Source of the DNA: a virus
Lineage: Duplodnaviria > Caudoviricetes
Virus record (IMG/VR): IMGVR_UViG_3300029286_000011
DNA: 64,000 nt
Strand: one strand, 5' to 3'
Shown: one piece after another, positions 15,001-21,000 of the stretch
Layout: every line of letters starts with the position of its first letter
How positions within the stretch are numbered: the first letter of the stretch is position 1
Position numbers: made by a program

Positions 15001-18000
15001 AGGCTGGGTACAGTCTGTGCAAAATGATTTCAGCTGGCATCGATGCCGACAACGACACAACCACAGGGCCGTCGAGGCTGTTGAGCTTGTCAGCTATATC
15101 CATTGTCAGTGACGACAGCGCTAGGTAGCAATCCCTGACCGGCACCTCGATAAAAGCTGCATAGCCAAAATACCTGTCGATATCTCGTAAGTAAGCCGGT
15201 CCAACCATGATCACAGGCAGCTGACGTAAGGCAGATATCAGAGGCAGCAATCGATTGTGGCCGCTTGCATGATGAAATATGTCGGCCTTGCACCAAGCCG
15301 TCGGTAAGTTATGCGTGGTCGTAATCTGACTGATCCATTCACCACACAATCGAAGAGCAAGGTTCTGCATACCGAGCAAATAGTCATACTCGTCGCGCGA
15401 CTGTCCGCAGTCCTTCAGAACATCTAGCAAGTCACGACCCATGTCGGGGAAATGCTGATGCTTATCGCAATTGCGAGACGGAGCACTACCCGGCGTTAGG
15501 TACTTCCTTACAGCCGCCCACTCACCGTCACCCCATCGAGAAAACGAGAAAGGCTGTTTTTCATTGAGCTTATCGACCAACGATTGATAGGTTACGTCTT
15601 CAGTAATGGCAAGCATGTTTTTTCCTTTTGAACAGTAAGCTGCCCGCTCTGTCGAGAAAAACAGACAAAGGTCGCTCTGTGTGTTTCACAGATTAGCCTT
15701 CGTGAAAAGCAATTAGGGCGGGGGCACGTAAGGCCCCTGACGGTAGTTGCTGCTGGGCTCTTACCTTGGCAACTCGACCAAGATACAGATCAGAGGCATT
15801 GAACAGATCCTTACGAAGATCGTCAGAAATGCCTGTGCCAACCTCGCCAACTTCCGGCCCGTCAGGTGTGAGTGAGTATCCGAACCCACCCGCACCGACG
15901 TTAGTGTACTTGCCCTTGCCTGGGAATATTCGTTTTACGTAGACATCATGGTCTTCCGTAAACTTGCTTTTCATCGGCTTGCCTGTGGGCGGATGTATGA
16001 CAACACCCTCACTGGTCAGCGGATGCTTACCAGCTCTGATGGTTTCCCACAGGGCCTTAGCTGACTCAGCATCTGTAGCCTCATCGGCCACATGAAATTG
16101 CTCAGGCAGATGCTTGGCGACATCACGTAGCATCTGCATTCGCTCGCTGTAAGGCACATCATCAGGGTGAATAGGACGGCTTCCCAGCTGCTGCACATCG
16201 TACAGCATGCTACGAAGCTTGATGTTCCTTTCCTTCTGTGCTTTCAATGAATTAGCAAGTGTGGCATTCAGAATACCACCTAACTCTTGGGGCGGGATGA
16301 CACTATCTCTCTCAACGCCGTCTCCACTGTGTACGGCAGCTTGATCAGCAGCCCCATCGCCAGCTGGCGAAGCTCCGATTCGCTGAGCGAGGCTATCACC
16401 GCCTGTTCCTTCAGCCTCAGCGTTGGACGACACTGCCCGTTCTTGCAATTTCCGCAAGCCATATAACTCCCCCTTCAAAATAGACCCAACCAATTCTTTA
16501 GGTATGTTCAGGCCCTGATGCTTTTTACCAAACATCCGTTCGGTATGAACAATTGGACGGCCAGTGGTCTTGCTGGTTCTGTACGACAGAACTTCCACAC
16601 CATCCCGCACCAGTCTGATAAGAGAAGACGCACCATCTAGCTTAGGCTGGACACTACTGCCCGGCTGCAGCTTATCAAGCACGTCGTTCATCTGCTCTGC
16701 CGGTATACGCTTGTAGTGCACCTTCTCGTACGGCAGCGGCTGCTTTGGCGTTGTATTCAGTAGCAGCCAGTCTTTCTCACGGCCACGCCCTGTGCGTATC
16801 ATTGTGAAACGCTCAGGATAGCGTTCGTCAGCTGTACTGAAGTCGAGACGACCCGGCTGCACACCTGTGAGCAGTATCTGTCCCTTGCGCTGCGTCTTTA
16901 CAGTGCCAGCGCCGTAGCCTTTTAAGGTGCCTTGGAAGTCTTTGTAGCCGTGGGCGTGTAAGGGCTGCTGTACGGCAAGATGCTTAGCGCCAGGAGCCGG
17001 TAGACCCTTTCTAGCGGCCCAGCTGTACAGACCCAGCGAAGGGCCGCCTATGCGTATATCCGAGTGCAGGCCAGCTCTCTGTGCGGCATGCTCTTGAACT
17101 ACGAAGTCAAACAGCTCACCAGGGGTAAGCTTTGACAGGTCACCAAAATTAGCCCTGTCAGGAATACCCATACCAGGAGCGGCAGTCTTCAGCCAGCTTG
17201 CGGCCTTTTCATCTAAGCCAATCTCGTCACCGTATAGAGTGACACCGTACAGCTCGCAACCAATTTTGGCTGAAAATTCGCTGTCGTCAGACTCAAAGAT
17301 GTAATTAGCGCTAATTACATCTTCTGCCTCTTTTGAGTCAGGCCATGGTTCGCCACATCGATTGCAACAGTCATCATCACCACGTTCCAAGAATGCATCG
17401 CAGTTCGGGCAGCATTCATCAGCAGCCTGTTTACCTAGCAGATGTCGAGCCATCTGCAGGACCTGCTCCTGGTCCGCAAGCGTATAGCCTCTGTTTTTGT
17501 AGGACGCTAGCGCACGTCTGTTAATCTGCCACAACTTTGGTAACGATAGTAACTCAGGTAGGGGCGCACGCAATCCCATAGCGATATTACGTCGCACAGC
17601 GCGCAAAGCCGACAACGATGGCCACGTATTAAGCAACATCGAGTTATCAGCTGGCACATCGTGCAACCCGCTATTCGAAAAGCCACTAACGACGACAGGC
17701 TGTGTTTGCTGAGCAAGCCATTGCTGATACTTGCTTGCAACACTTTTTTCAAACTCCTCTTCCTGGCCTGGTGCCCAGTTATAGTCGGTCAAATTGGCAC
17801 CTGCCGGAATACCCATGTCGCGCATCACTTCGCCTGAGAAGTCGTCCAGGTCTTTAGCTACAACACCCTGATGCTCGTCTGCGATCCGATTTAACGTTGT
17901 GGTCTTGCCGGCACCGGAGGCACCTGCGATACGAAGTATGGGTTTTTCAGCTGCGGCCTTACTGACTTCGTTCTCGTTCAATACGTTGGCTTTTCGTATG

Positions 18001-21000
18001 CCAATCGTGCAATGGAATTCAAACTCGCCGTCGTGTGGTTTGCTGGACAGTCCGTAAGACCGGCGCAACTGCTGCAGCTCAGGACTCTTTACCTCGATAA
18101 ACCATACCCTAGACACGCCTGACCATCCGTGCGGAACAACAGTCTTAACACGGCCTAGCGTGTATCGAAAGCTTCCACCACGTTCTGTGAGCTTATCGGG
18201 TCCACCGATCTTCTCGATGTCAGCCTTGGAGAATACGGATATGTGTGCTGTGAGCTTGCCGTTGTCATCAACAGGCAATTCGACGCCCGGTTCATCCAAG
18301 GCATCGAAGCATCCGCGCACAATGGCGTTTGGCACGGCTAGAAGGCCCCAACCAGACTGACTGACATACAGTCTTCCGGCCAAGGCATGCGCTGCCACAG
18401 GCTTAGCGGCCTCCTTCACGACACTGGCCACTATATCCTGATAAACCTGCTGCGAAATCTGCGGATAGACTAGACTCACAGCGCGCCTCTCAGTCATTCA
18501 GGCTTAATCGCGATAATGCGCGCTGCTGAGAACTACTCGGAGGCGCAGGATTTATAGGATGGCTGTGGCTATCGCCAGGCTGCACAGGCATGGAATCAAT
18601 AACCGGTGCAGGTAACGGCGCAGGCTTGGCGGCATCTGATCTGTAAAAGAAGGCAACAGAGTACCAACCAGTGCCATCGCGTATGGCCCGTACTGTTGCA
18701 TCGATACCAACTAACTCACCACTCTTAGTCCTAGCCGTACATGTAATGTGTTTGACCTTCTTGTATGAATCCATATCTTGCACACGTTCGATGGCTTGTC
18801 GATGCTTACAAGCCACATTCGGATCCATCATGAAGTCAGGTGCAGATCCAATAACTTCCTTAGCTGACCAGCCAAATAGATCTTCTGCGCCTTTATTCCA
18901 TTCGACGATCAACCCATCAGGATCAAGCATCGCGAATGGATATGTGCTGTCGTACAGCATCTGAAAGTATGCTGACGATCTAGTCTGCGCAGATGTGACT
19001 ATGAACTGTTGCGTAACGCCGTAGGCGATCAATATGCAACATAGCAGCCACGAGATCACGGAAGACACTATTACCCCGTAACTACGTGCCCTAGTCATCG
19101 GCATCCTCCTTGACTTTTTTACGTTTCCATCCGCCTCGCGGCGCAATGCTTATGTCTATTCCACCGTTCTGAATGACACTGAGCACAAAGTCTAGTATCG
19201 GTGTACCGCCCAGGCTAAGCAATAGTAACAGCCCGAGCAGTAATTGAACATTGGACGTAAGGTATTCCCGCCCAACAAGCCCGCAAGCCAACCCTGATAA
19301 GCCTGAGTTCAGTAACACGCTAACCAGTGTGCGGATAGAGAGCGACCTTTTAGATCGCAAAACAGAAGCTAACCCGGCAAAAGCAGTGACACCGAATATT
19401 AAGGCTAGTAGTTGGAACTGTGTCAGCGATTCCAGCTGCATAGTGGCCTCCCTGCGGCTGACACATGGCGGCGCCGGTGCAGCTTACATGGTGTTTCGAT
19501 TGGCGTCGCTACGTGTGGTGTGGTCAGGCACAGCGCAGTTTTGTAGCACTAGCAGGGGATGCTGCGTCCTGTCACTTTTAATATAGCACCAACATGTGTA
19601 GTGGTCTATTCGGGTGTCCCCTCAGTCCATCTCGACAGTTGCCGTGTTGTCATCAGGCTGCATGGTGCCAGCTAGCCACTTTCGCAAGCCGGCTGTCCAA
19701 GAGCCGATAGCCGGGCCGTGTAGCGACGTATATCGTTCCGTGTTCAGCGCCGTGTAGCGTGGTATGGGATGCTTGCTATGGAAGGCATTTGCCGACTGTC
19801 GTTGTAGCTTGTTAGAGCAGCCGAGATGCCTTGCCATCATGTCGGCCACAGCATACCAACAGCACAGCTCCTCACCAGCAATATGATATATGCCGGGGTC
19901 AATAGCGCTGCCCTGATCAACAAACCACAGCAGCGCATTGACGAAGTGCGGGATAAACGTGAGACTTGTAACCACGTCGTCAAATACCGTGACAGTCGGT
20001 TGTGCCGTCGACTTCAAGGCCGTGTACAACAGGCGAACTGAATTCAGCCTGTATTGTTCGGAGAGTCCGAAGAGAGTTGACGTACGTATGATGTAGTATG
20101 GTGCGTCGTGTGCGTCACGCATTCGGCGTAACAGTGTGTGCTCTGCCATCGCCTTGCTTATGCCGAAGGCATCGACAGGCCCCACAGGATCAGCTTCCCA
20201 GTAAGGAACCTTGCGGCGTAGATCCAATCCAAAAACATGGCTCGTCGACATCTGGTAAAAGGGGATGTCCCGACGAGCCGCAACGTACGCTAGATTGTCC
20301 ACAGCAACTACATTTGTCTCCCACGCATCATTGGTCATCACTTGGTCTGTCGGCGGTGTCAGCAATCCAGCGCAGTTGATGATTGCATCTGGTCTTACTG
20401 CAGCCACCCAACGCCTTACTCGCGTCAAATCTCTGATGTCCAACGCTTCCCGTGTCTTTGGTATGGCCTGTTCACCTAGAGAAAGAACAAGTGCCTGACC
20501 TAACTGTCCCGCTGCTCCGAGAACCAAATATCGTCCACGAGTACCGGCTGTCATAAACTATCTCCAAATAGGTACTTACAGCCGCATCCATGCCTTTTGT
20601 GCTGCCCTGCAGAGCTAAATGCTCTGAATACTATACCAGCTTGGGGCCTGCTATCAAGTGGAACAAGCAGAGCCAATAGGCGTATATATGAAAAGTTGAT
20701 AATTTGCGTAGGCTGCTGAATCTCTGATAGCTAAAAAAGAGGGGCACTGGCTTTCGCCAGCCCCCTCAACACGTAACAACTCAGCCGTACGTCATTGGAC
20801 GTCGGCCTCAGGCGCTACGTTGATCGCCTGCAATTCTTCCCGAAGGATACGCACGTCGTTGGGCGCTGAAATCCCTAGACGCACCTTCCCTCCTTGCACG
20901 CTCACCACCTTGATGACGATGTTGTCACCAATCAGAATCCCTTCATTAGCTCCGCGTGTCAGCACCAGCATTTTCGCCTCCTTACGTTATGGCTGTTTCG

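Follow-up and report, generated by a model that had tools for sequence, protein, structure and literature searches.

Why would a phage string a 2H phosphoesterase, a P-loop kinase, a zinc ribbon, a LigD-type 3'-phosphoesterase (PE) and an ATP-dependent ligase on one reading frame, and do these parts work as a single enzyme? The question is raised by a minus-strand open reading frame (ORF) in IMG/VR virus record IMGVR_UViG_3300029286_000011 (Duplodnaviria, Caudoviricetes), of which a stretch of 64,000 nucleotides was analysed, referred to here as the window. From the N- to the C-terminus, the 934-residue product consists of a leader, the 2H phosphoesterase, the kinase, a four-cysteine zinc ribbon, the PE and the ligase, which is formed by a nucleotidyltransferase (NTase) and an OB domain. 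An initial annotation, made from the sequence alone, described a multienzyme; rather than working as one enzyme, the product is more likely a polyprotein, probably cut at K-x-A motifs into the 2H, the kinase, the zinc ribbon and a PE-ligase unit. We propose, with a probability of roughly 55%, that the gene encodes a modular, protease-processed heal-and-seal polyprotein of a freshwater jumbo phage, that is, a DNA end-healing and nick-sealing kit that may be delivered by the capsid. The domain identities, the conserved catalytic residues, the DNA-ligase fold, the shuffling of modules, and the position, conservation and depletion of the K-x-A motif are what the analysis shows directly.

A conserved PE-ligase core with shuffled partners

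The C-terminal 53% of the protein, that is, the PE-ligase half, is shared with 95 protein clusters recovered by a word-index search, at identities of 31–60% and with variable N-termini; these relatives come from uncultured phage contigs of 50–230 kb. Joined to the N-terminal side of their PE-ligase are 2H, SNF2 helicase, NUDIX, InPase, HAD, HD, His-phosphatase, GNAT and C39-like peptidase modules, as well as kinases and inteins. The PE and the ligase form one conserved unit whose partner modules are shuffled, and the SNF2 helicase fusions point to DNA as its probable substrate. Among 5.8 billion clustered proteins, the five modules occur in this exact order only in the cluster of this phage's own protein (P0001; other P-numbers denote clusters of relatives); the domain order is unusual. 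At 1e-5, tblastn matched the 934-residue protein to none of 50,697 GenBank phage records, hence the lineage is known only from metagenomes; a single-sequence scan of the viral collection with the same protein also gave no match, and the relatives in this collection were recovered by an alignment-based scan.

Some of the relatives show additional features. Hint/intein domains are inserted in the PE-ligase polyproteins of P0017, P0063 and P0071. C39/C70-like cysteine peptidase domains were observed in P0019, P0085 and six 2H-led proteins, which they might process in cis. In a complete 226-kb IMG/VR relative, the PE-ligase frame (G003:C1:109401-110807, L006) contains one in-frame TAG, compatible with recoding or with two genes.

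The PE starts with a G-I-P-D-R box, which also opens the stand-alone PE-ligase genes, and carries the motifs H470-x7-H478-x-D480-x-R482 and H514-x3-Y518. It matches Pfam LigD_N (E 6.9e-8; 33.1 bits versus a cut-off of 31.1), and the PE structure of Pseudomonas LigD (3n9b) aligns at E 2e-9 with the active-site residues in register; H470, H478, D480, R482, H514 and Y518 correspond to H42, H48, D50, R52, H84 and Y88 of PaeLigD. An alignment of 81 sequences shows no variation at H478, D480, R482 and H514, while H470 and Y518 reach a conservation of at least 90%. The ligase has a complete set of motifs, K619-L-D-G (I), S638/R640 (Ia), G676-E677 (III), E830-G831 (IV), K843-x-K845 (V) and R-x-P (VI), and in the same alignment K619, D621, G622, S638, R640, G676, E677, E830, G831 and K843 are invariant.

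Several comparisons bear on the class of the ligase. PHROG 114 (ATP-dependent DNA ligase) covers residues 604–933 with an E value of 8e-19. When compared with the PDB, a profile of the PE-ligase family matched LigD-type PE structures down to 1.9e-23 (3p4h), and otherwise only DNA ligases, i.e., archaeal, Lig E, phage and Chlorella virus enzymes. The AlphaFold model of residues 453–934 (pLDDT 91.5, pTM 0.85) is consistent with a single rigid unit formed by the PE, the NTase and the OB domains; a Foldseek comparison of this model with the PDB yielded 153 matches at E≤1e-3. Each of the first 50 is an ATP-dependent DNA ligase, among them those of T4, archaea, LigD (6nhx), Lig E and Chlorella virus. 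Given that the top 50 structures and the family profile match only DNA ligases, the enzyme is of the DNA type by family; an Rnl-type RNA ligase was considered and rejected, since no RNA ligase appeared among the structural or profile matches of the PE-ligase. Therefore, the analogy with T4 Rnl and Trl1 drawn in the initial annotation holds for the logic of the pathway but not for the class of substrate.

The only disordered part of the PE-ligase model is a lineage-specific, low-complexity insertion of 46 residues that is absent from most relatives; the segment E677–738 spans 61 residues here versus a median of 15 in 80 relatives. A short ORF lies in an alternative frame within this insertion (Table 1).

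The K-x-A motif at module borders

Six K-x-A motifs are present in P0001, all of them in linkers of the N-terminal half (K28, K180, K356, K389, K431 and K437), and none occurs in residues 461–934, where 2.8 would be expected. In relatives the motif keeps its position relative to the folds. Of 161 relatives, 103 have K-A-A at a fixed +4 position behind the 2H fold, and 122 have K-x-A nearby; K-x-A lies 21–25 residues before the PE fold in 49 of the 64 proteins that have an N-terminal extension, and 0–10 residues after the ligase in 44 of the 65 that are extended at the C-terminus. The C-terminus of P0001 is the point at which the C-terminally extended relatives carry K-x-A; likewise, stand-alone PE-ligase genes begin with MPRxAvGIPDR, and in the fused forms this same sequence comes after K-x-A.

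Inside the modules the motif is depleted about 6-fold, with 36 occurrences observed versus 218 expected in the PE-ligase, 16 versus 87 in the 2H, and 1 versus 8.8 in the kinase. Control tripeptides occur at 0.5–1.5 times the expectation, K-x-G and K-x-S are about half-depleted, and the proteome of the window shows no depletion of K-x-A (93 observed versus 79 expected). The linkers of the N-terminal half are predicted to be disordered in the AlphaFold model. A fixed position in otherwise unrelated contexts, together with avoidance in the folded modules, is what characterizes a protease site; judging from these sequence patterns, K-x-A at the module borders is very probably a site of proteolytic cleavage.

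Genome context and the link to the head genes

All the genes of the window are co-directional. Downstream of the polyprotein gene there are genes for glycine-zipper proteins and for a 2197-residue fused RNA polymerase (RNAP) beta/beta-prime protein with an intein; upstream are found a PAS-domain membrane protein and an RmlD-like reductase. The co-directional block, at whose head the polyprotein gene stands, continues with a second large RNAP gene, several K-x-A-rich proteins, a cement-like protein and the major capsid protein, which has an HK97 fold. In six of these downstream proteins K-x-A is enriched (16 observed versus 5.1 expected, 13 versus 3.5, 16 versus 3.8, 13 versus 4.9, 6 versus 1.6, and 6 versus 1.2). 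One of them, of 507 residues, belongs to a family of more than 447 relatives that has no Pfam domain and in some cases contains inteins; in 58 homologues the mean number of K-x-A motifs is 16.1 versus 3.7 expected, and three sites are conserved in at least 90%. The major capsid protein, of 313 residues, is identified by Atlas features of 0.98–0.99 and a structure TM of about 0.9. This protein and the cement-like protein carry a single K-x-A each, at residue 29–31, suggesting propeptides of around 30 residues. K-x-A is also found at residue 13 of the RNAP beta protein, and at residues 30 and 80 of the second RNAP-like protein.

The association between the ligase and this block is conserved. Five complete related phage genomes of 195–226 kb are available, each with one PE-ligase, and in four of them, as in this phage, the PE-ligase, the RNAP and the capsid gene follow in this order on one strand within 25–35 kb; in 22 related loci an RNAP gene is no more than 10 kb from the ligase gene. 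Pfam and PHROGs gave essentially nothing for ten downstream head-block proteins, and phmmer found no PDB match for the 507-residue protein and for another of 316 residues. In the giant phage SPN3US, whose head contains the packaged virion RNAP, the prohead protease cuts head and ejection proteins at a three-residue motif, releasing propeptides of 20–24 residues and longer (PMC10052503).

Other details of the block were recorded. Five consecutive proteins of 831, 454, 507, 415 and 148 residues, encoded at L073:10001-19779, about 7–17 kb beyond the start of the window, have 3–4 times the number of K-x-A motifs expected from their composition, and the same is true of a 146-residue protein encoded just after the capsid gene. 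The genes for the cement/decoration-like protein (196 residues) and the major capsid protein are located at L073:19823-21400. The second RNAP-like gene (L072:11316-16730; 1804 residues), which comes next after the gene for the 2197-residue protein, has a Hint/LAGLIDADG intein, and inserts of the RNAP beta gene match PHROGs annotated as thymidylate synthase and ribonucleotide reductase, with a faint LAGLIDADG hit.

The 2H phosphoesterase, the kinase and the zinc ribbon

All the motifs that had been claimed for the individual domains are intact in the translated ORF, and the five assignments proved correct, with intact active sites, according to Pfam, PHROG and PDB matches, motifs, fold and family conservation. 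The 2H module presents the signature H85-I-S and H162-C-T; H85, H162 and T164 are conserved in at least 90% of 60 sequences, as is K28 of the leader. Its match to Pfam 2H-SAK is well above the cut-off (E 3.6e-10; 40.6 bits versus 27), and in the AlphaFold model of the N-terminal half its pLDDT is about 97. A VIA structure search over residues 47–176 gave Z scores of 5–7 to nine or more 2H structures. The top neighbour is the phage protein Acb1 (7t27; Z 7.0, 108 residues aligned, root-mean-square deviation 3.5, 8% identity), followed by CPDase (drCPDase, 6.4), a LigT-like protein (6.2), Usb1 (6.0) and a cGAMP phosphodiesterase (5.9). Acb1 and the CPDase, LigT, Usb1 and cGAMP phosphodiesterase structures are tied within about one Z unit, and these scores fit several 2H subfamilies, as well as end healing and signal degradation, about equally. 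Foldseek with the model of the N-terminal half returned nothing below E 1e-3. The relationship of this module to SAK proteins comes from the Pfam model, the only SAK-related match; no HAD domain is present in P0001, and the term "2H-SAK" was not found in the literature searched. A 2021 survey of 224 jumbo-phage genomes mentions SAK only as a HAD phosphatase family (PMC7824862).

An exhaustive HMMER search with residues 1–460 retrieved 821 representatives, 384 of them at E≤1e-30, and nearly all the matches cover only residues ~25–185, i.e., the 2H module. In these relatives the module forms the N-terminus of proteins of 187 to 2913 residues, and what follows it in 109 of them is highly diverse: InPase (14), HAD/LNS2 (8), NUDIX (7), DUF5661 (7), C39-like peptidases (6), LigD_N (3), GNAT (2) and others. 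The complete relatives have the 2H gene in one copy, invariably within the same block, fused to the PE-ligase in two genomes and present as a separate gene 0.7–9 kb from it in two more, so that the two modules are linked, fused or adjacent, in four of the five.

The kinase and the zinc ribbon, taken singly, reached no Pfam cut-off, and they are identified by their motifs, their fold and their conservation in the family. The kinase carries a Walker A P-loop (G190-ASGAGKT199), an acidic residue after strand 2 and LID arginines, as polynucleotide 5'-kinases of the T4 Pnk/AAA_33 type do, and G192, G195, G197, K198, D216, D218, R299 and R303 are invariant in seven family members. The core is modelled with a pLDDT of about 90, and residues 273–319 with less than 50. 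AAA_33 matches the seven members below the cut-off (best E 6.5e-6), as does AAA_18; T4 Pnk is the top structural neighbour in VIA (Z 7.1), with adenylate and dephospho-CoA kinases tied at 6.2. The Atlas neighbours are generic (AAA_33, PRK, AAA_18 and CoaE), and a kinase profile gave only P-loop-level matches in the PDB. By sequence, this is a generic AAA_33/AAA_18-type P-loop kinase, and a polynucleotide substrate is suggested only by its recurrent fusion beside the PE-ligase. The seven clear relatives either immediately precede the PE-ligase (P0022; also P0036, where an SNF2 helicase comes first) or immediately follow a 2H (P0097, P0109 and P0161, the latter a protein of 356 residues with 2H and kinase alone); moreover, in P0059 and P0064 this slot before the PE is filled by kinases of another sequence group. 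This recurrent and convergent placement is the main argument for a polynucleotide 5'-kinase. As to the zinc ribbon, it is modelled with a pLDDT of about 88 (range 85–92), and the same ribbon occurs in 31 relatives, 27 of which have K-x-A (W-P-x-K-x-A-A) within the following 18 residues.

The positions of the modules and of other features of the window are given in Table 1. The coordinates of the ORF agree with those of the initial annotation; the gene callers of public assemblies place the start six codons later, and an identical ORF is present on six contigs of 50 kb to more than 200 kb, including ENA k141_2774619 (ERZ27250635; 209,573 bp).

Table 1. Modules of the polyprotein and other features of the window (residue numbers refer to the 934-residue product; minus-strand features are marked -)
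Feature	Position	Strand	Remarks
Whole ORF	15693..18497	-	934 residues and a stop codon; 928 residues from an alternative GTG start at 18479
N-terminal leader, residues 1-30	18408..18497	-	Ends K28-E-A; candidate propeptide or targeting peptide
2H phosphoesterase, residues 31-182	17952..18407	-	Ends in linker S-K180-A-A; Pfam 2H-SAK, model, VIA
P-loop kinase, residues 183-358	17424..17951	-	Ends K356-Q-A; Walker A 190-199, K-D216-L-D218-D-F, LID R299-x3-R303
Four-Cys zinc-ribbon mini-module, residues 359-391	17325..17423	-	C363-x2-C366 ... C378-x2-C381; ends W-P-D-S-K389-E-A
Spacer, residues 392-439	17181..17324	-	Ends K431-A-A and K437-T-A; low model confidence
LigD-type PE, residues 440-585	16743..17180	-	H470, H478, D480, R482, H514, Y518
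Ligase NTase domain, residues 586-850	15948..16742	-	K619 motif I, plus Ia, III, IV, V
Low-complexity insertion in NTase domain, ~residues 686-735	16293..16442	-	Predicted disordered
Alternative-frame ORF inside the ligase insertion	16280-16462	-	60 residues, starts MACGNC...
Ligase OB domain with motif VI, residues 851-934	15696..15947	-	R-x-P near C-terminus
Membrane-anchored PAS-domain protein	18490-19146	-	Pfam PAS 1.4e-8; directly upstream, overlaps the polyprotein ATG by 8 nt
Fused RNAP beta/beta-prime-N gene	4049-10642	-	2197 residues; intein-like inserts
Gene with Pfam CsrA match	20792-20971	-	59 residues; would be a phage carbon-storage-regulator-like RNA-binding protein
Three tRNA genes	31249-31323, 31639-31711, 54263-54336	-	Two tRNA-Met (CAT), one tRNA-Tyr (GTA)

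Proposed mechanism and points against it

According to our proposal, the precursor would be cut at K-x-A to yield the leader, the 2H, the kinase, the zinc ribbon, the spacer and the PE-ligase, in which PE and ligase would stay joined. The 2H would open 2',3'-cyclic phosphates or other 2',3'- or 2',5'-linked phosphodiesters, or else degrade nucleotide signals; the small P-loop kinase would most likely convert 5'-OH into 5'-phosphate; the Mn-dependent LigD-type PE would remove 3'-phosphate or 3'-ribonucleoside blocks; and the minimal ATP-dependent DNA ligase (core residues 440–934) would seal the nick through K619-AMP. The protease would probably be the head-maturation protease, because the proteins of the block, through to the capsid genes, carry the same motif. 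In the least certain step, the capsid might take up the enzymes and deliver them along with the DNA; for the 934-residue protein such packaging is given somewhat less than an even chance. The likely role of the set would be the rapid repair of nuclease- or damage-induced breaks in the phage DNA, as a counter-defence. A more tentative version, less likely than not, can be envisaged for a clade of uncultured freshwater jumbo phages that would use a K-x-A-delimited cargo train: a short leader and the 2H would take interchangeable enzyme modules into the prohead, the head protease would uncouple the modules, and these would be ejected with the genome. In this phage the train would bring a cyclic phosphodiesterase, a 5'-kinase and the 3'-phosphoesterase-DNA ligase, so that repair of the incoming genome would be pre-loaded before phage genes are expressed.

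Several observations weigh against this proposal. The kinase fits nucleoside and nucleotide kinases as well as it fits T4 Pnk, and 2H enzymes classically act on RNA or nucleotides, which makes them odd beside a DNA ligase. In three of the five complete relatives no DNA ligase besides the PE-ligase was detected, so that this core may double as the replicative enzyme. As a leader is missing from many stand-alone PE-ligase genes, the core cannot be packaged as a general rule. No protease was found in the head block by Pfam, PHROGs or PDB sequence searches. The interior of RNAP beta shows no depletion of K-x-A (13 observed versus 12.5 expected); in addition, the homologues are related by descent, and therefore Poisson P values for the motif overstate independence, the ratios being the robust part. 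Finally, cleavage, the identity of the protease, packaging and the substrates are all inferred.

Alternative explanations

Of the alternatives, the one that survives best, unlikely as we consider it, is that of a polyvalent cargo with unrelated jobs, in which the 2H (like the InPase, NUDIX, HAD and His-phosphatase modules of relatives) would destroy immune signals in the manner of Acb1, the kinase would act on nucleotides, and only the PE-ligase would act on DNA. The structural ranking of the 2H, with Acb1 first and a cGAMP phosphodiesterase also present, agrees with this idea, as does the equal resemblance of the kinase to nucleotide kinases; the 2H is N-terminal in at least 384 clusters, with very varied partners that are mostly nucleotide or phosphoester enzymes, and 2H and InPase are typical of phage polyvalent proteins, for which the 2H was predicted to target signals or to be an RNase (PMC5512222). 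Nevertheless, the Acb1 score is tied with those of CPDase, LigT and Usb1, kinases of different families recur directly upstream of the PE-ligase, and the 2H and the PE-ligase are linked in most of the complete relatives.

It is rather unlikely that the protein acts uncleaved, as a single multifunctional enzyme that performs all the activities in cis on one broken end and in which K-x-A is a conserved linker sequence. Such an enzyme would be in line with one continuous ORF, with its intact active sites, with the multidomain nature of LigD, Trl1 and Pnkp, and with the failure of the head-block searches to reveal a protease. On the other hand, it does not account for a motif that is purged about 6-fold from the interiors and whose fixed sites coincide with the termini of stand-alone genes; the same modules are separate neighbouring genes in relatives, and the linkers are predicted to be disordered.

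Unlikely, too, is a PE-ligase that simply serves as the replicative ligase sealing Okazaki fragments, with the additional modules as incidental fusions. One copy per complete genome, and its being the sole detectable DNA ligase in three of the five, would be expected of such an enzyme; however, the other two relatives carry a full-length NAD+-dependent LigA-type ligase, and in these the PE-ligase is not merely replicative. The active site of the PE, which replication does not need, is invariant and always attached, and the gene is located in the block of the RNAP and head genes rather than in a replication block.

Repair of tRNA or rRNA cut by host anticodon nucleases, for which the 2H would open the cyclic phosphate and, after the action of the kinase and the PE, the ligase would seal the RNA, is judged improbable. 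The Pfam model that matches the 2H is named for "Swiss Army Knife" RNA-repair proteins, the chemistry fits the products of metal-independent RNases, the phage has tRNA genes, and searches of the five complete relatives for RtcB (PF01139) and Rnl2-type (PF09414) proteins found no other RNA ligase that could do the sealing. Against this stand the DNA-type NTase and OB domains, which by profile and fold matched no RNA ligase, the fusions with SNF2, a double-stranded DNA translocase, and the description of LigD PE enzymes as acting at DNA breaks (PMC3258152).

The initial annotation stated that a chimeric assembly or inactive domains would refute it. Such a chimera, or a gene that has decayed and lost its activity, can be dismissed almost entirely, given the identical ORF on six contigs and the conservation of all catalytic residues in relatives, and no observation was found to support either.

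Relation to known systems

Well-known examples of heal-and-seal enzymology are Trl1, LigD, and T4 Pnkp together with its ligases. In LigD, whose domains are arranged as PE-LIG-POL in Pseudomonas and POL-PE-LIG in Mycobacterium, the PE is directly N-terminal to an ATP-dependent NTase and OB DNA ligase, as it is here; the His-His-Asp-Arg-His-Tyr active site of the PE is complete, and the LIG domain (6nhx) is among the structural matches. In contrast with LigD, the protein described here is phage-borne, has an added 2H, kinase and zinc ribbon, and its ligase resembles archaeal or viral ligases at least as closely as it does LigD LIG. No primase-polymerase (POL) domain was detected in P0001 with Pfam and NCBIfam, nor in the relatives scanned, and Ku (PF02735) is absent from the five complete related genomes; LigD proper was rejected on these grounds.

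The same logic, with a 5'-kinase, a 3'-end phosphoesterase, a cyclic phosphodiesterase (CPD) and an ATP-dependent ligase, is followed by T4 Pnkp with T4 RNA or DNA ligase, by Clostridium Pnkp/Hen1, and by fungal and plant Trl1 (ligase-kinase-CPD). Unlike in these systems, the 3'-phosphatase is here a LigD-type PE instead of a HAD or calcineurin-like enzyme, the ligase is of the DNA type with an OB domain instead of Rnl-type, the order of domains is different, and the activities are probably separated by proteolysis. The CPD of Trl1 is also a 2H enzyme (PMC7145591).

T4 internal proteins carry a capsid-targeting leader. Giant-phage proteins processed in the head, such as the substrates of SPN3US gp245 and phiKZ gp175, resemble the present case in that a leader of about 30 residues ends in a three-residue motif, the motif is repeated in proteins of the head block, and an RNA polymerase is encoded in the same block; they differ in that SPN3US proteins are cut C-terminal to a motif other than K-x-A, and in that the cargo proposed here, if processed as we think, would consist of DNA-end repair enzymes. 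With Acb1 and the viral 2H phosphodiesterases of cGAMP and 2'-5' linkages, the 2H module shares the fold; unlike them, by sequence it belongs to Pfam 2H-SAK, and its identity to Acb1, the top neighbour, shows no sequence-level relationship.

With several unrelated enzyme modules in one long phage polypeptide, drawn from a shared and shuffled repertoire that includes 2H and InPase, the protein has the modular make-up of the phage polyvalent proteins, which were predicted to be packaged in the virion and processed into units (Iyer, Burroughs, Anand, de Souza and Aravind, 2017; PMC5512222). In that study processing was ascribed to a metallopeptidase acting in cis, whereas here there is no peptidase in cis and the borders carry K-x-A. 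The term "LigD" does not occur in it, no LigD-type PE or DNA ligase module is included, and its 2H versions were never seen with RNA ligases (PMC5512222). The 2021 jumbo-phage survey likewise contains no occurrence of "LigD" (PMC7824862), and no description of a phage-borne LigD-type PE fused to a DNA ligase, as found here in more than 90 protein clusters, appeared in the literature searched.

Significance

The individual activities are of known kinds; their combination, i.e., a PE-DNA ligase phage core with kinase and 2H accessories in a K-x-A-delimited polyprotein, was found nowhere in the literature searched. The compact PE-ligase unit, of about 495 residues, could be useful as a reagent, since "dirty" nicks would be sealed by it in a single step. 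Should the enzymes act on DNA ends with 3'-phosphate and 5'-OH, these phages would be able to counter host nucleases or damage that ordinary ligases cannot reverse, and if the cargo train exists, it would represent a complete DNA end-healing and sealing kit used as an anti-nuclease counter-defence, for which there is no described equivalent. If the K-x-A code is real, it would allow processed, and possibly capsid-delivered, proteins to be recognized from sequence alone in many uncultured phages, and it would explain how enzyme modules are so freely shuffled among them.

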